From contig JANNXX010000041.1 of assembly GCA_031409795.1 (NCBI GenBank), positions 11,210 to 75,209 of the forward strand: a DNA stretch of 64,000 nt, read 5' to 3'. The DNA comes from Rhodobacterales bacterium. GTDB taxonomy: Bacteria; Pseudomonadota; Alphaproteobacteria; Rhodobacterales; Rhodobacteraceae. Position 1 is the first letter of the stretch. Each line of letters begins with the position of its first letter. The position numbers and the translations under genes are program-made. Positions 3,827-49,442 of this stretch are shown here, in pieces. The notes below the pieces were generated by a model, which was not told the DNA's origin, did not search any database, and saw only the letters and a list, made by a program, of their open reading frames with translations.

Positions 3827-4825
3827 TCAGGCACCCCCCATCAGGTGCAGGGCCGAAGGTTCGAAGGCGATTGCGGTCCGCTCGCCTTCGGCAGGGACCG
3901 GCTGGCCCGCCGGGACAAGGGCGGCGATTTCCGTCCCGTCGGCGTCCAGCACCACGCGGGTGCCCGAGCCAAGGTAGCGCAGCGCCGTGACGCGGCCGGT
4001 CACCGGGCCGGTCGCGGCCAGGCGGGTCGCCTCGGGGCGCAGCGAGGCCCAGCTGTCCGGGCCACCAAGCGCGCGGGTCAGGGCCGGCGGCAGTACGTTC
4101 GACGAGCCGACGAAATCGGCGACGAAGCGGGTGGCGGGCCGGTCGTAGATGTCCTGCGGCGAGCCGATCTGGGCGATGCGGCCCTCGTTGAAGACGGCGA
4201 GGTGATCGGCCATCGACAGGGCCTCGTGCTGGTCATGGGTGACGAAGACGAAGGTCAGGCCCAGGCGGTGTTGCAGGGCCTTCAGCTCGTCCTGCATCGC
4301 CTCGCGCAGCTTGAGGTCAAGCGCGCCAAGCGGTTCGTCCAGGAGCAGCACCCGCGGTTCGTTCACCAGCGCCCGGGCCAGGGCGACACGCTGGCGCTGG
4401 CCGCCGGACAGCTGCGCGGGCTTGCGGTCGCCGTAGGCGTCCAGCTTGACCAGGGCAAGCATTTCCTCGGCCTTGGCATGGCGTCTGGCGCGCGGGGTGC
4501 CCTTGACCATCAGCCCATAGGCCACGTTGTCGCGCACGTTCAGGTGCGGAAAGAGCGCGTAGTCCTGAAACACCGTGTTGACGTTGCGCAAATGTGGCGG
4601 GGTGTTCGAGACATCCTCGCCGAAGATGCGGATCTGGCCGCCGGTTGGTTTCTCGAAGCCCGAGATCAGGCGCAGGCAGGTGGTCTTGCCCGACCCGGAC
4701 GGCCCCAGCATGGCGAAGAACGAGCCCTCGGCGATGGTCAGATCGACGCCATCGACGGCCTTCACCGGTGCGGAGGCGGGGCCGAAATGGCGCGAGACGG
4801 AGTGGAAGGTGACGGCAGCGGTCAT
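3827..4825 (-). CDS. ydcT: Polyamine ABC transporter ATP-binding protein (YdcT/PotA-like)
   Basis: Walker A GPSGSGKT, signature LSGGQRQRV, Walker B LLLDE, H-loop; alternative start at 4840. Confidence 0.92.
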
Positions 4826-4943
4826 GGGGCTTTCTTGCATAGAACGGGCAAGCCTCCCGTTTTCACCGTCCCTGAAGACAGGGAAGGCGGCGCGGGGTGC
4901 CCAAAGGTAAGGCCTGCGGCGACAGTCAGTTCGGAAAAGGTGG

Positions 4944-4980
4944 CTCCCCTTCCCCTTGGCGGGGGAGGGGAGGAGCGGGG
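4944..4980 (-). repeat. REP-like palindrome (family A)
   Basis: Minus strand CCCCGCTCCTCCCCTCCCCC-GCCAA-GGGGAAGGGGAG, just downstream of the SBP stop codon. Confidence 0.65.
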
Positions 4981-4996: not shown

Positions 4997-6154
4997 TTAG
5001 CGCCCGCCGATCACGCCGATATAGTCCGAGACCCAGCGGTAATAGGGCACGCACATGCCGTCGCCCTGGGCGCAGTTCGACACGGGGGTGGTCCAGAACC
5101 GGATCTTCTCGAAGTCGTCAAGCCCGTTGGCGGTACAGGTTTCCGCCGTGGCCATGCCGCGCCCGTCGGTGCAGGCCGCCGGAACCGAGGGGTTCGCGCC
5201 GAACCAGACCGCAAGGTCGGATTGCAGGTTCGAGGACAGCGTGTGTTCCATCCACAGATAGGCGCAGTTCGGGTTCGCCGCATCGACATGCATCATCGTC
5301 GTGTCAGCCCAGCCGGTGGCGCCTTCCTGAGGGATCACCGAGGCGACGGGCTGGCCTTCGCCTTTCAGGAGGTTGACCTGGAAGGGCCAGGACCCGGACG
5401 CGACCACGCCTTCGTTCTTGAAGTCATCCATCTGGATGAAGGCGTCGTGCCAGTAGCGCGAGGTCAGGTCGCGTTGAACGCGCAGCAGATCAAGCGCGGC
5501 CTTGTACTGCTCTTCGTTCAGCTCGTAGGGCGAGGTGATGCCAAGTTCCGGCTTGTGGAACATCAGGTATTGCGCCGCATCGGCGACGTGGATCGGGCCG
5601 TCATAGGCCTGGACCCGGCCCTTGTTCGACTGGCCGTCGGGCAGAGTGGTTTCCTCGAACACCACCGACCACGAGGTTGGCGGTTCCTTGAAAACCTCGG
5701 TGTTGTACATCAGCACGTTCGGTCCCCACATGTAGGGAACGCCGAAATGCACGCCGTCGACCGTGTGCCAGGGCGCGCTTTGCAGGCGGGGGTCGACGGT
5801 GGACCAGGACGGGATCAGGTCGATGTTGACCGGCTGCACGCGGTCACCGGCCACCAGACGCAGCGAGGCGTCGCCCGAGGCGGTCACCAGGTCAAAGCCG
5901 CCTTCGTTCATCAGCGCAACCATTTCATCCGAGGTGTTCGCGGTCTTGACGTTGACCTTGCACCCGCTGGCAGCTTCGAACTTGGTGACCCAGTCGAAGG
6001 TCTTGTCGGTTTCGCCACGCTCGATGTAGCCAGGCCAGGCGACGATGTTCACCTGGCCTTCCGGCGCGCCGATTTCAGTGATCTGGGCCAGTGCCGGGGT
6101 CAGCCCGGTCAGCACGGCAAGGGCCGTCGTGGCCATCAGCTTCATGTGTCTCAT
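4997..6154 (-). CDS. ydcS: Polyamine ABC transporter substrate-binding protein (YdcS-like)
   Basis: Signal peptide; AWPGYIERGETDK...DWVTKFE, SDEMV, TASGDASLRL and WGPN segments match what I recall of E. coli YdcS; SD GGGAG upstream of ATG 6154. Confidence 0.9.
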   Translation of the reverse strand: MRHMKLMATTALAVLTGLTPALAQITEIGAPEGQVNIVAWPGYIERGETDKTFDWVTKFEAASGCKVNVKTANTSDEMVALMNEGGFDLVTASGDASLRLVAGDRVQPVNIDLIPSWSTVDPRLQSAPWHTVDGVHFGVPYMWGPNVLMYNTEVFKEPPTSWSVVFEETTLPDGQSNKGRVQAYDGPIHVADAAQYLMFHKPELGITSPYELNEEQYKAALDLLRVQRDLTSRYWHDAFIQMDDFKNEGVVASGSWPFQVNLLKGEGQPVASVIPQEGATGWADTTMMHVDAANPNCAYLWMEHTLSSNLQSDLAVWFGANPSVPAACTDGRGMATAETCTANGLDDFEKIRFWTTPVSNCAQGDGMCVPYYRWVSDYIGVIGGR

Positions 6155-6265
6155 CGCAAACTCCCTCTGGTTGGTCGCGCACAGCCGCGCCACGCCGGTT
6201 TTCCGGTCATGTCAGCACGCTACGACCACCGGAAGAAATCGCAATAACAAAACGGGGATGAGAGG

Positions 6266-9182: not shown

Positions 9183-10196
9183 TCACCGCCGGGTCATCGC
9201 AATGCGGATCAGCGCGCGTTCCATCAGCGCCATTCCGGGCGCTCGGCTGGCGGACCGCAGGGTCAGGTCGGTTTCCAGCAGGACCGAAACGGCGGCTTCC
9301 AGCGCACGGACCTCCCACTGCCCGGCCTGCCTGCCCATCGCGTCCTTCTGCTTGAAGTTCACCCGTGCCCGCTGAATGCCCACAGCCGGACCCTGCGGGT
9401 CGGTCGCGGCAGCGTGCAGCACGCGGAAATGCCGAAGCGCGCCGATGCAGATCGTTACCGGCAGCACGCCCTGGCCTTCAAGACGGCGAAACAAGGGGCC
9501 GATGGCCGGCGCGCGGGCCTCGGCGACAGCGTCGATCAGGTCATCGACGTCGGCCTCGATGGTGGCGGGGGCCATGGCGACGACATCGGCGGGGGTCAGC
9601 GGCGTGGCGTCGCCCCATTTGTACAGCGCGATCTTTTCCAGCGTCTGGCGGAAATCGCCGGGGTCCAGAGCGCGGGCCAGGGTGGTCAGGTCCGCCATCG
9701 CTTCGCGGCCGATATCTGCAAGCCCGGCCTTGCGCAGCGCCTCTTCGATCTCTTCGCGGCCCGGCGGGTCGTCGTAAAGCCCGATGGAGACCGCCTTCGG
9801 GTGCTTTTCGAACAGCGTCTTCAGCGCCGACTTGCCGGTCAGCCCGCCTGCCGTGACCACGATGACCGCATCGCCCGGCTTCCAGTCGGCCAGCGCGGTG
9901 GCCACGGGGTCGGCAAGCCCGTCGGTCGCGTCCTCCAGAAAGGCCACGCGCGGACCGGGAAAGAAACCGACCGCCTTGATCGCGTCCACAAGAAGGCTGC
10001 CGTCGCGGCGCAGATCGCCCCCGGACATCCGGGTCAGGCGCATCTCGGCCTCACCCCCCGGGCCGATCAGGGCAGAGATCGCCTCTTGTCGCTTCAGCGC
10101 CACCCGCATCGGATCCGCGCCGAAAATCAGCAGGCCCGCCCGGGCCGGGTCGGGATTTGCGCAATAGCGGGCGGCCTCGGCCCCCTTCAGGATCAT
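9183..10196 (-). CDS. holA: DNA polymerase III delta subunit
   Basis: LIFGAD, FFPGPRV, ELEKL-like QTLEKIALY, conserved leuS-lptE-holA order. Confidence 0.9.
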   Translation of the reverse strand: MILKGAEAARYCANPDPARAGLLIFGADPMRVALKRQEAISALIGPGGEAEMRLTRMSGGDLRRDGSLLVDAIKAVGFFPGPRVAFLEDATDGLADPVATALADWKPGDAVIVVTAGGLTGKSALKTLFEKHPKAVSIGLYDDPPGREEIEEALRKAGLADIGREAMADLTTLARALDPGDFRQTLEKIALYKWGDATPLTPADVVAMAPATIEADVDDLIDAVAEARAPAIGPLFRRLEGQGVLPVTICIGALRHFRVLHAAATDPQGPAVGIQRARVNFKQKDAMGRQAGQWEVRALEAAVSVLLETDLTLRSASRAPGMALMERALIRIAMTRR

Positions 10197-10831
10197 GGTT
10201 GGCTGGCCGAGGCGGCGATCAGCCGGGCGACGATCTGGTCGGCCAGGATGCGCATCAACCGAAGGGCGGCGTCCTCTTCCGCCGCAAGCCCGGCGACTGT
10301 GGACCCGGTGGCGGAATAGGCGGTGAAGCTTTGCACCCGGCCCCCGGCCACGCGGGTGCCGCTGGCACGGTCGGTCAGGGTGAAATCGACGACGCCCTTC
10401 AGGTTGTAGCGCGTGATCTCGTTTTCCGTGGTGATGCCGACCCCGACGGCCTCGGTCGTGATGGTGAAGGTCAGATCGTAGCGGACAGCTTCGGGGCGTC
10501 CAAGACGTTCTTCAAGCCGTTCGACAAGGTCGAAACCGTTCTTGTCGGTCGGGTCCTGCACCCAGACCGCCCCCATCAGCCCGGTTGCCGGTCCCCCGGG
10601 TGCAAGTGCCGGAGTGAACCCGCAGGCGGCAAGGGCAAGCGGGGCGAGGATCAGCCAGCGGCGTGTCGGTGCCCCCCCACACCAGCCCTCTCCCACCTGG
10701 GCAGAGAGAAGCGCCCGGTCCGAAGCGCCCCGCCTTGAGACGGGCGCGACTAGACCCCTGCCTCCGGCGTGGGGGAGGGACAGGCTGGGGGAAGCCCCTG
10801 ATGTAGAGCGGCTACCGCTAGACGACGACAT
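10193..10831 (-). CDS. lptE: LPS assembly lipoprotein LptE with a repeat-derived N-terminal insertion
   Basis: Lipobox LAACG; TRYNL..., SFTAYS..., [18 protein letters not shown]; ATG 10831 (MSSS) overlaps the end of leuS; position between leuS and holA. Confidence 0.85.
10672..10712 (+). repeat. REP-like palindrome (family A) inside the lptE 5' region
   Basis: CCCCCCCACACCAGCCCTCTCCCACCTGGGCAGAGAGAAGC. Confidence 0.65.
10755..10791 (-). repeat. REP-like palindrome (family A) inside the lptE 5' region, inverted relative to the 10672 copy
   Basis: Minus strand CCCCCAGCCTGTCCCTCCCCCACGCCGGAGGCAGGGG. Confidence 0.7.
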
Positions 10832-13373
10832 TGATGATGCGCCCCGGGACGACGATGATCTTCTTGACCGGCTGACCGGCCAGGAACCTGACCACATCCT
10901 CATCCGCCAGCGCCAGCTTTTCAACCTCCGGCGCGGGCATGTCCTTCGGCACGCTGATTTCCGCCCGCCGCTTGCCGTTGATCTGGATCGGCAGGGTCAC
11001 GGTGTCGTCGATCAGCAGAGCCGGGTCCGCCTTGGGCCATGGGGCCTGCGCACAAAGGCCCGCACCACCCTGATAGCTCCAGATCGACTCCGCGATATGC
11101 GGGGTCATCGGCTGCATAAGCTGCGCCAGCGTGCGGATCGCGTGCTTCATCGTTGCGGTCGAGGCGTTCGCTTTGGCGATGGTATTGGTAAAGGCGTAAA
11201 GGCTGGCGATGGCCTTGTTGAAGGCAAAGCCCTCGATCCCCTTCGTCACTTCAAAGGTGGCTTTGGCGGTGGCGCGTGCCAGATCGGCATCACCCTCGCC
11301 CTGATGGTCCGCAGGCATCTCGCCGATCCGGCTGCACACCGCCCAGACCCGGCTCAGATGCTTGAACGCCGCCTCCGCGCCCGAGGAGGTCCATTCCACA
11401 TCCCGCTCCGGCGGCGAATCCGACAGCACGAACCACCGCGCGGTGTCGGCCCCGAAGGAGGCAATGATGTTCATCGGGTCGACAACGTTCTTCTTGGATT
11501 TCGACATCTTGGCCGAGGGGATGACCTCGACCTTCGTGCCATTCTTGAGCGCCGCCCCGCCTTCCGACCGGATCACGTCTTCGGGCAGATGATAGACCGG
11601 TCGGTCCTGCGCGTCGGTCGTCCTGTAGATCTCATGCGTGACCATTCCTTGCGTGAAGAGCGCATTGAACGGCTCCACCGCCATCGCGGGCAGATGCCCG
11701 GTCTTCATCATCGCCCGGGCGAAGAAGCGGGAGTACAGCAGGTGCAAAATCGCATGCTCGACCCCGCCGATGTACTGGTCGACGTTCATCCAGTAGGCGG
11801 CGTCTTCCATCACGGTCGGAGTCGTCGCACGGGGTGCGGTGAAGCGGGCGAAGTACCAGCTTGAATCGACGAAGGTATCCATCGTGTCCGTCTCGCGCCG
11901 GGCCTTGGCACCGCACTTCGGGCACACGCAATCGCGCCAGGTGGGGTGACGGTCCAGCGGGTTGCCGGGGATGTCGAAGCTGACGTCATAGGGCAGCTCG
12001 ATCGGCAGGTTCGCCTTCGCCTCGGGCACCACGCCGCAGGTCGGGCAATGCACCACGGGAATCGGGCAGCCCCAATAGCGCTGACGGCTGATGCCCCAGT
12101 CACGCAGGCGGAATTTGGTCACGCCCTTGCCGTATCCATGGGTTTCGGCATGCGCGATGGCGGTGGCGACGCCCTCTTCGCCGGTCTGAACCGCAGCACC
12201 GGCAAAGCCGCGGACATAGTGGACCTGCTCTGATTTCATCGGCACGAACGCCTCGGCCAGCGCCCCGTCCGCGATGCCTTCGGCCACGAACACCGGCTTG
12301 ATCGCAAGCCCGTATTTCGTGGCAAAGTCAAAGTCGCGCTGGTCATGCGCCGGGCAGCCGAAGATCGCCCCGGTCCCGTAATCCATCAGGATGAAGTTGG
12401 CGATCCAGACCGGCAGCTCCCAGGTCGGGTCAAGGGGATGCTGCACCCGGATGCCGGTGTCGAGGCCGATCTTCTCGGCGGTTTCCAGCGCCTCGGCTGT
12501 GGTCCCGCCCACCCGGCAGCGGGCCAGGAAATCGGCCACGGCCGGGTCGCCCGCCAGCGCCTTGGCCAGCGGATGATCAGGCGAGATCGCCGCAAACGAC
12601 GCGCCCATCAGCGTATCCGGCCGCGTCGTATAGACCTCCAGCGCCTCGAACCCTGCGGGAGCCCCCACCGTCTGGAACGCAAACTGCAATCCGCGCGACT
12701 TGCCGATCCAGTTCGCCTGCATCAGGCGCACCTTTTCCGGCCAGTCCTTCAGCCCGTCCAGGGCCGACAGCAGTTCCTCCGAATAGTCGCTGATCCTGAA
12801 GAACCACTGCGTGAGTTCCCGCCGTTCAACGGCAGCCCCCGACCGCCAGCCCTTGCCGTCGATCACCTGCTCGTTCGCCAGAACCGTCATGTCGACCGGA
12901 TCCCAGTTCACCACCGCCGCCTTGCGGGTGACAAGGCCCGCCTCCAGCATGTCGATGAACATCGCCTGCTGCTGGCCGTAATACTCCGGGTCGCAGGTCG
13001 CAAGCTCACGCGACCAGTCGATCGACAGGCCCAGCGGCTTCATCTGCGCCTTCATGTCGGCGATGTTGCCGTAGGTCCAGTCCTTCGGATGGCCCCCCCG
13101 CTCCATCGCCGCATTCTCGGCGGGCATGCCGAAGGCGTCCCAGCCCATCGGGTGCAACACGCTGAAACCTTGCGCGGATTTGGTCCGTGCCACCACGTCG
13201 CCCATGGTGTAGTTGCGCACATGCCCCATGTGGATGCGGCCCGACGGATAGGGGAACATCTCCAGCACATAATACTTCGGCTTTGCCGGATCGCGCTGCG
13301 CAAGGAATGCCCGGGCCTTGTCCCACTCCTGTTGCCAGCGGGGTTCGATCTCCGAAGGGTCATAGCGCGACAT
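10818..13373 (-). CDS. leuS: Leucine--tRNA ligase
   Basis: [13 protein letters not shown] (HIGH motif), [19 protein letters not shown], editing domain. Confidence 0.98.
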
Positions 13374-16221: not shown

Positions 16222-16542
16222 TCAGCCGGTCTGCGGCAGGCAGCCGCTCAGCCCGGCCGGCAGCACCAGCGGTGCGCCAAGGGCGTACAGCGTGGTGACA
16301 AGATCGGCCCCGCCGCGCAGGGTGACGCTGACCGGCCCGGCGCTGACCACCGAGACGCCCTGTGGCAAGCTGCGGATCAGCCCTTCGGGCGGCAGGATGA
16401 CCAGCGCCGCCGGGGCCTCGCCGCCCAGCCGCATGACCAGCGCCAGCGTGCCGATCCAGCCCAGCGCAACCAGCGGCAGCGCGATTAGCGGCAGCGCGGG
16501 CAGCGGCAGCGCGGGCAGCGCGCGGCGCAGGTCAGTAGTCAT
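16222..16542 (-). CDS. Small hypothetical membrane protein
   Basis: N-terminal TM helix; overlaps the upstream stop; C-terminal GCL motif. Confidence 0.65.
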   Translation of the reverse strand: MTTDLRRALPALPLPALPLIALPLVALGWIGTLALVMRLGGEAPAALVILPPEGLIRSLPQGVSVVSAGPVSVTLRGGADLVTTLYALGAPLVLPAGLSGCLPQTG

Positions 16543-46375: not shown

Positions 46376-46707
46376 GTGCCATGATCGACATCGCCGCGCT
46401 TGACGACATTCCGCGGCAGGGCGCGCGGGTGGTGAAGACCGACGCGGGCTGTGTGGCGGTGTTCCGCACGGCGGACGATCAGGTCTTCGCGCTGGAGGAT
46501 CGCTGTCCGCACAAGGGCGGCCCGCTGTCCGAAGGCATCGTCCACGGCACGCAGGTCACCTGCCCCTTGCATGCCTGGGTCTTCGATCTTGCGACCGGGC
46601 AAGCAGAGGGCGCTGATGCAGGCAGTGTGCAGACCTATCCGGCGCGGACGGACGGCGGGCGGGTGTTTCTGGACGCGACCTTCCTTCTCAGCCGGTCGGC
46701 GGCGTGA
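46372..46707 (+). CDS. nirD: Nitrite reductase small (Rieske) subunit
   Basis: CPHKGGPLSEG and CPLH Rieske motifs. Confidence 0.95.
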   Translation: MSAMIDIAALDDIPRQGARVVKTDAGCVAVFRTADDQVFALEDRCPHKGGPLSEGIVHGTQVTCPLHAWVFDLATGQAEGADAGSVQTYPARTDGGRVFLDATFLLSRSAA

Positions 46708-49442
46708 CCCTGGCCAGCCCCCCCACCCCATCCCTCCCCCACAGCGGGGGGAGGGAGGCGCATCCGTATGGCGGCAGGACGGGCATCCGGTCGACCTGCC
46801 CCTATTGCGGGGTGGGCTGCGGGGTGGTCCTGACGCCGGACGGGACGGGTGGGTTGTCCGTGCAGGGCGACCCCGACCATCCTGCGAATTTCGGGCGGCT
46901 TTGTTCCAAAGGCTCGGCGCTGGGCGAGACGGTCGGCCTGGGCGGGCGGCTGCTGGCCCCCCGCGTCTTCGGGCAGGAGGTGGGCTGGGCGGCGGCGCTG
47001 GACGTGGTGGCCAGACGCTTTGCCAAGACGATTGCCGATCACGGGCCGGATGCGGTGGCGCTTTACGTCTCGGGCCAGTTGCTGACCGAGGATTACTACG
47101 TCGCCAACAAGCTGGCCAAGGGCTTCTGGGGCACCGCGAACATCGACACCAATTCGCGGCTTTGCATGGCCTCGTCGGTTGCGGGGCATCGGCGGGCCTT
47201 CGGGTCGGACACGGTTCCGGGCCTCTATGAGGATCTGGAGCAAGCCGATCTCGTGGTCCTTGTCGGGTCGAACCTGGCCTGGTGCCATCCGGTCCTTTAC
47301 CAGCGCCTTGCTGCCGCCAAGGCCGCCCGGCCCGCGCTGAAGGTGGTCGTCATCGACCCCCGTCGCACCGCCACCTCCGAGATCGCGGACCTGCACCTTG
47401 CCATCGCCCCCGGCGGCGACATCGCCCTTTTCAACGCGCTTCTGGCCCGGATCGAGGCGGGCGGCCATGCTGATCCCGCTTTTCTGGCCCATGTCAGCGG
47501 GGCCGGGGCCGCCTTCGCCGCCGCCCGCGCGACCGATCCAGCCGGATCCGGGATCTCCAGCCCCGACCTGGGCGCGTTTCTTGATCTCTGGACCGGGACG
47601 GAACGGGTCGTCACCGTCTATTCGCAAGGCGTGAACCAGTCCGCGCAGGGCACCGACAATGTCAATGCGATCCTGAACTGCCACCTTGCCACCGGGCGGA
47701 TCGGCCGTCCCGGCATGGGGCCGTTCAGCGTGACGGGCCAGCCGAACGCCATGGGCGGGCGCGAGGTTGGCGGGCTGGCCAACATGCTGGCCTGCCACCT
47801 TGAGATCGAGAACCCGTCGCATCGCCAGGCAGTGCAGGACTTCTGGCAATCGCCTGCGATCCCAGAGAAACCGGGCCTAAAGGCGGTAGACATGTTCCGT
47901 GCTGTCGCCGACGGGCGGATCAAGGCGATCTGGATCATCCACACCAACCCGGTCGTGTCGATGCCCGAGGCTGATCTGGTGGCCCGCGCGCTGCAAGCCT
48001 GCCCCCTTGTCGTGGTGCAGGACATCACTGCCGCGACCGATACCGCCCGGCTGGCCCATATCCTTCTGCCCGCAACCGCCTGGGCCGAAAAATCCGGCAC
48101 TGTCACCAATTCCGAACGCCGGATCAGCCGCCAGCGTGCCGCCCTTCCCGTGCCGGGGCAGGTGCGGGATGACTGGCGCATCCTGGCCGGGGTCGCGGGC
48201 CGCATGGGCTGGGGCGCGGCCTTTGCCTGGGACGGCCCGGCAGAGATCTTTGCCGAACACGCAGCCCTGTCCGGGGTGGCAGGCGGGTTGGGCAGTGATT
48301 TCGACATTTCCGACTACGCGGGGATCGGTCCGGCGGACTATGATGCCTTGCAGCCCTTCCTCTGGCCCGCAAACCCGCGCCAGCGGGGCGGGCGGTTCTT
48401 TGGCGGGGGCCGGTTCCATACCCCGGACGGCAAGGCCCGGATGCTGGCGGTCTCGCCGCCCGCGCCCTCTGCGGACCCAGCGCCGTTCCGGTTGAACACC
48501 GGGCGCATCCGCGACCAGTGGCACACGATGACGCGCAGCGGCAAAAGCCCGCGCCTGTCGGTACATCTGGCCGAACCCTTTCTGGAGCTGCACCCGGCCG
48601 ACGCCGCGCGGCTGACCCTTGCCCCCGCCGATCTGGTCGAGGTGGAAAGCCCGCTTGGCCACGCGATCCTGCGGGTGCTGGTCACCGACCGCGTTGCGCC
48701 GGGACACCCTTTCGCGCCGATGCACTGGACCGGAGAGACCGCACCTTCGGGGCGCATCGACGCGCTGGTCGCGGCCAATCCCGATCCGGTCTCGGGCCAG
48801 CCCGACAGCAAGGCCGCCCCGGTCGCGCTGCGCCGGTTTGCTGCGGGCTGGTTCGGCTTTGCCGTCGCAAGCGCCGATTTCCGCCCCGATTGCGACTATT
48901 GGGCCAAGGCACGCACCGCCGGGGGATGGCGGGCCGAACTGGCCGGGCGCGCCGTGCCGGGGGACTGGGAAGCACAGGCCCGCAGGCTGTTCGGTCTGCC
49001 GAACGCCGAAGCGGCGACCGTGATCGACCGGACCCGGGGCCTGGCCCGGATCGCGTTTCACGCCGAGGGGCGGCTTCTGGCGGCACTGTTCGTCGGACCC
49101 GACCCCGTCGCCCTGGCCCGTGACCAGCTTGCCGCGCGTCTGGCCGGGCAACCGGGCTCGGATGCGCCGCATGAGGCTTTGTCCGGGCGTGCGCGGTCAG
49201 GCCGCCCGGACCCCGGACCTACGGTCTGCGCCTGTCTGAATATCGGGTTGAACACCCTCCGCCAGGCCATCGAAGGCCGCCAGGTGCTGTCCGTCGCCGC
49301 GCTGGGCGAGGCCTTGGGTGCCGGAACCTCTTGCGGGTCCTGCCGACCCGAACTGGCAGCCCTGATCCGGCGGTTCGGGCCGGTCGGGGACCAGCCAGCA
49401 CCAGCCGCGTCGCGCGACCAGTGCGCCGAGCCGCTGCTCTGA
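46704..49442 (+). CDS. nasA: Assimilatory nitrate reductase catalytic subunit (Mo-bisPGD)
   Basis: TCPYCGVGCG...C 4Fe-4S; DTNSRLCM; GQPNAMGGRE; TGRIRDQWHTM; C-terminal BFD-like CAC...CGSC. Confidence 0.95.
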   Translation: MTLASPPTPSLPHSGGREAHPYGGRTGIRSTCPYCGVGCGVVLTPDGTGGLSVQGDPDHPANFGRLCSKGSALGETVGLGGRLLAPRVFGQEVGWAAALDVVARRFAKTIADHGPDAVALYVSGQLLTEDYYVANKLAKGFWGTANIDTNSRLCMASSVAGHRRAFGSDTVPGLYEDLEQADLVVLVGSNLAWCHPVLYQRLAAAKAARPALKVVVIDPRRTATSEIADLHLAIAPGGDIALFNALLARIEAGGHADPAFLAHVSGAGAAFAAARATDPAGSGISSPDLGAFLDLWTGTERVVTVYSQGVNQSAQGTDNVNAILNCHLATGRIGRPGMGPFSVTGQPNAMGGREVGGLANMLACHLEIENPSHRQAVQDFWQSPAIPEKPGLKAVDMFRAVADGRIKAIWIIHTNPVVSMPEADLVARALQACPLVVVQDITAATDTARLAHILLPATAWAEKSGTVTNSERRISRQRAALPVPGQVRDDWRILAGVAGRMGWGAAFAWDGPAEIFAEHAALSGVAGGLGSDFDISDYAGIGPADYDALQPFLWPANPRQRGGRFFGGGRFHTPDGKARMLAVSPPAPSADPAPFRLNTGRIRDQWHTMTRSGKSPRLSVHLAEPFLELHPADAARLTLAPADLVEVESPLGHAILRVLVTDRVAPGHPFAPMHWTGETAPSGRIDALVAANPDPVSGQPDSKAAPVALRRFAAGWFGFAVASADFRPDCDYWAKARTAGGWRAELAGRAVPGDWEAQARRLFGLPNAEAATVIDRTRGLARIAFHAEGRLLAALFVGPDPVALARDQLAARLAGQPGSDAPHEALSGRARSGRPDPGPTVCACLNIGLNTLRQAIEGRQVLSVAALGEALGAGTSCGSCRPELAALIRRFGPVGDQPAPAASRDQCAEPLL
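46718..46759 (+). repeat. REP-like palindrome (family A) in frame inside the nasA N-terminus
   Basis: CCCCCCCACCCCA-TCCCTCCCCC-ACAGCG-GGGGGAGGGA-GGC, encoding PPTPSLPHSGGRE. Confidence 0.8.

Follow-up and report, generated by a model that had tools for sequence, protein, structure and literature searches.

A REP-like repeat pair at the leuS-lptE junction of a Rhodobacterales bacterium is probably translated as an extension of the LptE signal peptide

Extended signal peptide regions (ESPR) of autotransporters and the long n-regions of twin-arginine translocation (Tat) signal peptides show that an N-terminal extension of tens of residues is compatible with export. Cases in which small palindromic repeats have fused in frame with genes are likewise documented (PMC10969869, PMC3184786, PMC3733652). 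The Rickettsia palindromic elements (RPE; Ogata et al. 2000, 2002, as summarised in PMC10969869 and PMC3733652) are 'coding palindromes' that lie in frame inside genes. Repetitive extragenic palindromes (REPs) and REP doublets forming hairpins (REPINs) comprise GTAG- and CGTC-tagged families, and Di Nocera et al. (2013, PMC3733652) describe REPs inside genes and at the N-termini of open reading frames (ORFs) in several free-living species. Small mobile repeats of the ERIC, BOX and MITE types (MITE for miniature inverted-repeat transposable element) have also been found fused in frame to ORFs, in some cases extending the termini of the protein (Delihas 2007, 2011, PMC3184786; review PMC10969869). 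Here we analyze a pair of REP-like palindromes at the N-terminus of lptE in a Rhodobacterales bacterium of the Rhodobacteraceae (assembly GCA_031409795.1, contig JANNXX010000041.1, positions 11,210 to 75,209), a stretch of 64,000 nt that we call the window. A sequence-only reading of this DNA had proposed that the repeat is translated as a disposable extension of the cleaved signal peptide, and the comparison with related loci argues for that proposal.

Anatomy of the repeat pair inside lptE

The order leuS-lptE-holA is common to the window and the related loci. The features of the locus in the window are the following, in the direction of transcription.

10818..13373, minus strand: leuS, leucyl-tRNA synthetase, an 855-residue ORF in the ORF list; the protein begins 4 codons after the listed TTG.
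10820-10818, minus strand: leuS stop codon TAG; the leuS C-terminus was the anchor for the junction comparison.
10829..10831, minus strand: lptE ATG, a 14-nt overlap with the leuS end; conserved in 79 of 79 junctions.
10749..10797, minus strand: upstream REP-like unit, C-rich in the mRNA, UCCCCCAGCCUGUCCCUCCCCCAC-GCC-GGAGGCAGGGG; identified by inverted repeat and family profile (E = 0.004).
10718..10748, minus strand: spacer between the units, homologous to the GPVAPVxxRxAS spacer of the relatives' doublets at the same site.
10668..10717, plus strand: downstream REP-like unit, inverted, G-rich in the mRNA, CUUCUCUCUGCCCAG-GUGGGAGAGGGCUGGUGUGGGGGGG; family profile E = 0.01.
10694..10696, minus strand: GTG within the downstream arm, the single other canonical start in the lptE frame; the Cys follows 24 codons later.
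10622..10666, minus strand: ancestral core of the lptE signal peptide, with TRR n-region, WLILAPLA h-region and LAAC lipobox.
10193..10621, minus strand: mature LptE and stop, matching Pfam PF04390; the stop TGA overlaps the holA ATG.
9183..10196, minus strand: holA, DNA polymerase III delta, from the ORF list; coupled to lptE through the ATGA overlap.

The last leuS codons (ATC AAT GTC GTC GTC TAG) contain the lptE ATG, 10 nt before the leuS stop. Read from this ATG (10831-10829), the lptE frame had no stop through both repeat units and reached the RR motif and the lipobox, whose Cys is codon 70 (10624-10622; mature start ...C-GFTPA). The residues R57, R58, L67, A68, A69 and C70 were invariant in an alignment of 35 homologues, and the segments RR, LILAPLA and LAAC-GF make up a predicted lipoprotein signal peptide with a lipobox and an invariant Cys. 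The LptE domain matched Pfam PF04390 with E = 4e-11 (residues 88-204, profile positions 3-118 of 118). There were 1734 LptE homologues in the protein collection, many of them named LPS-assembly lipoprotein, and the closest match of the window protein had 91% identity. The organism is uncultured, a Tabrizicola-like Paracoccaceae member living in freshwater sediment. Compared with uninserted relatives, the insert is 153 nt, or 51 codons; it follows the leuS stop directly on the 3' side and separates the initiator MSS from the n-region's RR. The expectation of an ATG overlapping the leuS end, about 50 extra codons and a lipobox Cys at residue 70 was thereby borne out. A Tat signal peptide was considered for the RR motif and dropped, as no TAT_signal family matched in Pfam or NCBIfam at E <= 1 and RR alone is not diagnostic.

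The inverted arms of the pair (10674-10696 and 10769-10791) are 23 nt each, 74% complementary and 72 nt apart, and each makes up the outer half of one small hairpin unit. No match to either arm occurred in 100 shuffles of the window. A profile of the repeat family, built from 124 copies taken from other genomes, found four sites in the window, two of them at lptE (10754-10780, minus strand, E = 0.004; 10669-10713, plus strand, E = 0.01). The peptide read from the upstream unit aligns with the repeat peptide of relatives. These results agree with the initial recognition of two oppositely oriented palindromes of one family, and the lptE units are degenerate, old members of it. On the mRNA strand, immediately ahead of the RR codons, the G-rich arm (10674-10696, minus strand; GTGGGGGAGGGATGGGGTGGGGGGG) carries four or more G-runs, a G-quadruplex-type motif; the canonical copies in L031, L032 and other loci have this motif as well.

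The stretch 10500-10881 was identical, with 0 differences, in independent contigs from two metagenome runs. A contig of a co-occurring relative from the same metagenomes (runs X1 and X2) joined 10525 to 10828 by 149 nt, compared with 302 nt in the window. Its junction is exactly 153 nt (51 codons) shorter and so has the length of an uninserted one. An Rfam scan of 10000-11500 gave sub-threshold chance matches and nothing more, and a promoter and terminator scan of 10500-11000 found neither an internal sigma-70-type promoter nor an intrinsic terminator in the repeat.

Frame conservation across relatives and the start codon of lptE

We fetched 80 related leuS-lptE loci, of which 78 had both genes; together with the window they gave 79 junctions. 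We took as junction length the distance between the leuS stop and the codon of the lipobox Cys, and three classes were found.

Short (ancestral) junctions, 35 of 79, 37-43 nt: an 18-residue signal peptide, MSSFNRRxLLLxPLALAAC, read from the leuS-overlapping ATG.
Extended junctions, 41 of 79, 15-234 nt longer: each of the 19 distinct lengths exceeds the ancestral one by a multiple of three.
Out-of-frame junctions, 3 of 79 (L071, L074, L079; labelled Cypionkella or Rhodobacteraceae), 162-168 nt: an AT-richer, repeat-free spacer followed by an ATG of its own.

Repeat units were recognisable in about 33 of the 41 extended junctions. Cultured carriers include Tabrizicola soli CCTCC AB 2017177, with a junction of 274 nt, T. 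flagellatus SYSU G03088, with 178 nt, and T. thermarum YIM 73036, with 91 nt; T. aquatica RCRI19, at 40 nt, is uninserted. The repeat-free relatives have the 18-residue signal peptide from the same ATG, not an equally long N-terminal region, as the proposal of an inserted extension had anticipated. The ancestral junction has no separate ribosome-binding site for lptE, and in many uninserted relatives the overlapping ATG is the sole in-frame start codon. The three out-of-frame junctions have, by eye and unscored, a short purine-rich stretch resembling a Shine-Dalgarno (SD) sequence upstream of their own ATG.

Over the 41 extended junctions (6065 nt), stop codons numbered 0 in the lptE frame and 34 and 22 in the other two frames. 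With the other two frames as background (56 stops over about 4040 codons), the lptE frame should contain about 28. As a control we took three further spacers of these loci, and their lengths modulo 3 were evenly spread (26/19/20, 7/11/6 and 25/20/15). In a neighbour-joining tree of LeuS plus LptE, inserted and uninserted alleles were interspersed; parsimony on this tree required at least 32 length changes and at least 13 gains or losses, and all 14 sister pairs that differed did so by a multiple of three. These comparisons of sequence are strong evidence that in about 40 orthologous junctions selection has kept the repeat open in the lptE frame. They also suggest that the repeat is translated, because otherwise nothing would hold the length at multiples of three or exclude stops.

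The same counts bear on the most trivial explanation, that the open frame and the inverted repeat arose by chance in G+C-rich DNA or from an artefact of assembly. Long spurious ORFs are common at 66.6% G+C, an obvious ATG follows the element in most other family copies that have an 'open' frame downstream, and the predicted RNA fold of the lptE doublet, a long hairpin, had an energy no better than that of shuffles (z = -0.65). The empty shuffles, the profile matches to both units, the identical independent contigs, the even control spacers and the absence of all of the about 28 expected stops already contradict this explanation, and we give it almost no credence.

Which codon starts LptE is less plain. 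The GTG at 10696-10694 could serve as an additional start, and it might be the only one: the repeat would then be an untranslated spacer, LptE would have a 25-residue signal peptide, and the open frame would be incidental. An in-frame GTG is found at -24 or -28 in most two-unit junctions, it would give a signal peptide of typical length, and NCBI annotation of the relatives P0027, P0030 and P0050 takes it (167 aa). Di Nocera et al. (2013), in their treatment of REPs at predicted ORF N-termini (PMC3733652), caution that such REPs may be extragenic, with translation starting downstream. This account leaves unexplained, however, why the 41 extended junctions have lengths in multiples of three and no stops while control spacers show no such bias. 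As the sequence-only reading had noted, no SD-supported start is evident downstream; the GTG is preceded by CUUCUCUCUGCCCAG, in which there is no SD-like run, and the predicted hairpin has it base-paired. Nor does its presence point to selection for a start, because it belongs to the repeat consensus GTGGGGGAGGG wherever the repeat occurs. In eight extended junctions (L001, the closest relative, and L023, L037, L038, L041, L039, L042 and L076), no canonical start that keeps the RR follows the coupled ATG. Lineages with a true intergenic spacer, moreover, have their own ATG and an out-of-frame length. We therefore regard a spacer followed by a GTG start as unlikely.

A compromise would be dual initiation, in which leuS-coupled ribosomes, started at the ATG and reading through the repeat, melt the hairpin and let an internal GTG or ATG initiate too, so that two precursors yield one mature LptE. 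It fits both the conserved frame and the frequent downstream in-frame starts, and the hairpin would tie the internal start to upstream translation. The internal starts lack SD sequences, though, and dual initiation is unnecessary for any observation made here; its probability seems to us about as low as that of the spacer.

We infer instead, with fairly good confidence, that the coupled ATG is used and that the repeat is translated as a 51-residue extension of the signal peptide, discarded on cleavage. Several points weigh against this. In 33 of the 41 extended junctions, including the window, an in-frame GTG, ATG or TTG lies downstream of the element and would give a normal signal peptide of 15-28 residues, and NCBI annotation of relatives takes such downstream starts (167-aa and 153-aa forms). 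The locus is known from DNA metagenome runs alone, and translation is deduced from selection on the frame. The neighbour-joining tree is rough, and recombination could inflate the number of independent events. A 69-residue lipoprotein signal peptide is unusually long, and the charge of the extension across relatives is not consistently positive (-3 to +5, median +1). The fold energy given above also belongs here.

Existing annotations of the LptE start conflict between P0027, P0030, P0050 and P0057 and P0001-P0010. Two starts are in use in NCBI records: the downstream arm's GTG, for a protein of 167 aa, and an ATG that precedes the Cys by 10 codons and loses the RR, for one of 153 aa. Gene calls from JGI, ENA and Logan have the long protein, of 206-217 aa.

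The repeat family and its copies elsewhere

The family consensus is CCCCCCCACCCCATCCCTCCCCCAC-loop-GGGGGAGGG, written out as CCCTCCCCC-ACgag-GGGGGAGGG. Undecayed doublets in relatives read GCCCCCCCACCCCATCCCTCCCCCAC-nnn-GGGGGGAGGGGG, about 45 nt, then CCTCCCTCCCCCC-nn-GTGGGGGAGGGATGGGGTGGGGGGGC; they are two REP-type stem-loops (9-bp stem, 5-nt loop) arranged head to head over about 120 nt. Two subfamilies occupy the lptE site in different genomes, both in frame, one with the stem CCCTCCCCC and the other with the stem CCCTCTCCCC, which is read as PHPSPLPQGERG. The genome collection has the exact 21-mer CCCACCCCATCCCTCCCCCAC in at least 119 stretches, several of them from one genome. Among the matches listed, its carriers were mostly Tabrizicola, Rhodobacter, Gemmobacter and other Paracoccaceae, with a few Azospirillum and Hyphomicrobiales, and 46 of 126 copies had an inverted partner, at a modal gap of 70-72 nt. 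The arm spacings of these doublets were 70, 71, 72 and other values, not multiples of three alone.

Most listed copies were extragenic, either after a stop codon or ahead of an obvious ATG start, and most of the others with an open downstream frame had an obvious ATG after the element. Because of the latter, the usual position of the family is extragenic and lptE is a special case. A protein search with the canonical repeat peptide gave no candidates, and a profile search with 12 extension peptides against 1.8 billion representatives gave 21 weak matches, mostly short ORFs, and was uninformative. As far as our searches reach, this G+C-rich family is undescribed in the literature.

Copies in frame inside ORFs, with coding-like flanks on both sides, numbered 12 among the 21-mer matches listed, corresponding to 11 distinct insertions. 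A classification of the 126 copies by the G+C content of third codon positions (GC3) proved too strict, leaving 77 unclassified, and candidates were then checked by eye and with Pfam. These insertions include the following.

XdhC (L172, L205, L243, L265; four genomes among the matches listed): a single unit between the XdhC_CoxI and XdhC_C domains, by Pfam.
PhnI (L198, L230): a 40-residue doublet inside one Pfam match (residues 1-388, profile 1-347 of 348).
HrpB (L227): an insert between Helicase_C and the connector domain, by Pfam.
CobB (L249): an insert inside the CbiA domain, by Pfam.
CobG-like ORF (L177): named from sequence; the sole domain match, N-terminal and ferredoxin-like, is upstream of the insert.
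CobN ORF (L242): named from reading the sequence alone.

The intragenic copies are usually read as PPTPSLPHxGGRE and PPSPPVGEGWGGG. The family thus has copies in frame inside genes that look conserved and intact, and the Pfam-checked cases of XdhC, PhnI, HrpB and CobB sustain the parallel with RPE that had been drawn for lptE.

Two further sites of the profile lie elsewhere in the window.

46716..46761, plus strand: canonical single unit, profile E = 1e-11, in frame at the nasA N-terminus directly after the nirD stop; reads SPPTPSLPHSGGRE.
4942..4969, minus strand: weak hairpin variant CTCCCCTTCCCC-TTGGC-GGGGGAGGGGAG, profile E = 0.16, below significance; a possible family member.

At nasA, nirD and nasA overlap by GTGA at 46704-46707, and the unit's reading frame is the same one as at lptE. 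Ahead of the Fe-S cysteine motif STCPYCGVGCG (window 46704-46830) there is no other canonical start in frame; among the matches listed, none of them from a close relative, the NasA starts of other bacteria usually lie 4-11 codons before this motif. At 46770 an ATG lies out of frame, with a good SD sequence, GGAGG, 9 nt upstream. The unit was confirmed by contigs of three runs, in which it is multi-copy at about 20-40 times the depth of its flanks. Judged from these reading frames, translation of a repeat at a coupled junction may have its second instance in nasA. An assembly frameshift in nasA was rejected, since three independent assemblies agree. Another genus has a similar in-frame doublet: the N-terminus of nasA in L087 (Roseobacter sp. 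HKCCA0434), upstream of position 1501, is PPSPSLPPTGGGERFAASGVSPSPRRGEGRGGG, with all its in-frame starts 45-56 codons ahead of the Cys motif.

The hairpin at 4942-4969 lies in a 156-nt spacer between a potD-like gene (4997-6193, minus strand) and a potA-like gene (3827-4840, minus strand), an ordinary extragenic position. At 16462-16520, a minus-strand ORF read as ALPALPLP repeats contains a tandem repeat whose period is 15 nt (CAGCGCnnnCAGCGG...).

With REPs and REPINs the family shares short imperfect palindromes with a G+C-rich stem-loop, a pattern that the consensus has and of which the window units are degenerate versions. The 9-bp stem, the 5-nt loop, head-to-head doublets at a preferred spacing, a location mostly just outside coding regions near stops and the lack of an evident target-site duplication are further likenesses. 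Its tag, however, is not clearly present: many copies have GGCC(T/C)GTCGCGCC after the stem, and in many a (T/C)GTC lies 4 nt beyond the stem, not adjacent to it. The stems also lack the initial A-T pairs of the CGTC families as these are described in PMC3733652, and a long C-rich tail, of 14 nt, precedes the stem on its 5' side. The family is REPIN-like, with its place among the REP families associated with REP-associated tyrosine transposases (RAYTs) not established.

The doublet also has the size of a MITE (about 120 nt) and, at its ends, terminal inverted repeats of about 25 nt (GCCCCCCCACCCCATCCCTCCCCCAC and its complement). No target-site duplication was evident by eye in the flanks of the 42 doublets listed, whose ends are imprecise enough for a 2-nt duplication to escape; MITE-type insertion was set aside for want of this duplication. 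The ERIC, BOX and MITE fusions differ further in being mostly single annotated cases without a test of selection, whereas the lptE frame is conserved over about 40 orthologous junctions.

Like RPE, the family is a short palindromic one, both intergenic and in frame within genes, that adds a peptide, leaves the gene intact and lives in an alphaproteobacterial host. It differs in its extremely G+C-rich composition, its poly-C and poly-G arms and its free-living Paracoccaceae hosts; the likeness is one of function. Because the base composition is opposite, the element is not filed as RPE. The peptide added at lptE would also be removed with the signal peptide instead of being kept in the mature protein, and the insert lies at a translationally coupled junction. 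The LptE extension resembles ESPR in standing ahead of an otherwise normal n/h/c signal peptide; ESPR, in contrast, is a conserved functional motif with a Pfam family, and the LptE extension is repeat-derived, variable and absent in sister lineages. We found no report in the literature of such an element in a signal peptide. What is new is the location in a cleaved lipoprotein signal peptide at a coupled junction, with about 40 orthologous alleles showing selection on the frame.

A route into the signal peptide and its implications

The extension is rich in Ser (16%), Pro (16%), Gly (15%) and Arg (8%), and by our own count from the sequence has a net charge of +3 in the window. It has no hydrophobic segment: its maximal 11-residue Kyte-Doolittle mean was 1.16, compared with 2.5 for the h-region. 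It had no match in Pfam or NCBIfam. An AlphaFold model gave pLDDT below 50 for residues 3-55, a helix at 57-69, and pLDDT of 60-90 with the LptE fold from about residue 80.

LptE, of the Lpt pathway, and HolA, of the replisome, are essential, and the maturation of lipoproteins by Lgt and then LspA is an established pathway. On this background we propose the following route. Elements of the REP type commonly lie just 3' of stop codons, and the spot after the leuS stop is already inside the overlapping lptE: the element is within the lptE frame because the lptE start precedes the leuS stop by 10 nt. Without a ribosome-binding site of its own, lptE would be translated from the coupled ATG. An insert that is out of frame or bears a stop would be lethal, and only stop-free inserts with lengths in multiples of three would persist, because lptE and the coupled holA are essential. 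The translated insert would form a disordered, Ser/Pro/Gly/Arg-rich n-region extension of 51 residues that stays in the cytoplasm during export. In-frame inserts would survive because their added residues come ahead of the RR, h-region and lipobox; unchanged, the RR, h-region and LAAC would direct export, lipidation of Cys70 and cleavage by signal peptidase II. After processing by Lgt and LspA, the extension would leave with the signal peptide, and mature LptE would be unchanged. A return to the 40-nt state may occur by excision or deletion.

Normal export and processing of the long precursor and the way in which the element moves are, like the use of the coupled ATG, the conditional parts of this route. 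The idea of the site as a 'safe harbour' stands in so far as a cleaved n-region would tolerate an insert. It is restated here as to why the site is hit: it would be struck as a spot 3' of a stop codon, and the in-frame, stop-free versions would survive.

We also considered that the doublet has been put to use, with the hairpin and its G-quadruplex-prone arm setting the passage of ribosomes from leuS to lptE-holA, and that free-living Paracoccaceae carry a class of translated REPINs preferring signal peptides and coupled junctions. This is speculative, and we would bet heavily against it. If the doublet were put to use, the recurrent gain and loss at the site, with at least 13 changes on the tree, would amount to tuning of LptE and HolA output; if the class of translated REPINs were real, nasA in the window may be its second case.

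For gene annotation, the finding concerns the split LptE start in these genomes, with its 153-, 167- and 206-217-aa forms, and a lipoprotein signal of 69 residues will probably escape signal-peptide predictors. Compared across relatives, the junctions demonstrate that a REP-type element lying at a predicted N-terminus is selected to stay an open frame, where the literature takes such cases as ambiguous (PMC3733652). They also suggest a simple route of selfish repeats into coding sequence: landing after a stop would, at overlapping coupled gene pairs, mean landing in the next gene, and a cleaved signal peptide would hide the cost. RPE-like coding palindromes would thereby extend to a G+C-rich family in free-living freshwater Paracoccaceae, for which cultured carrier strains exist.

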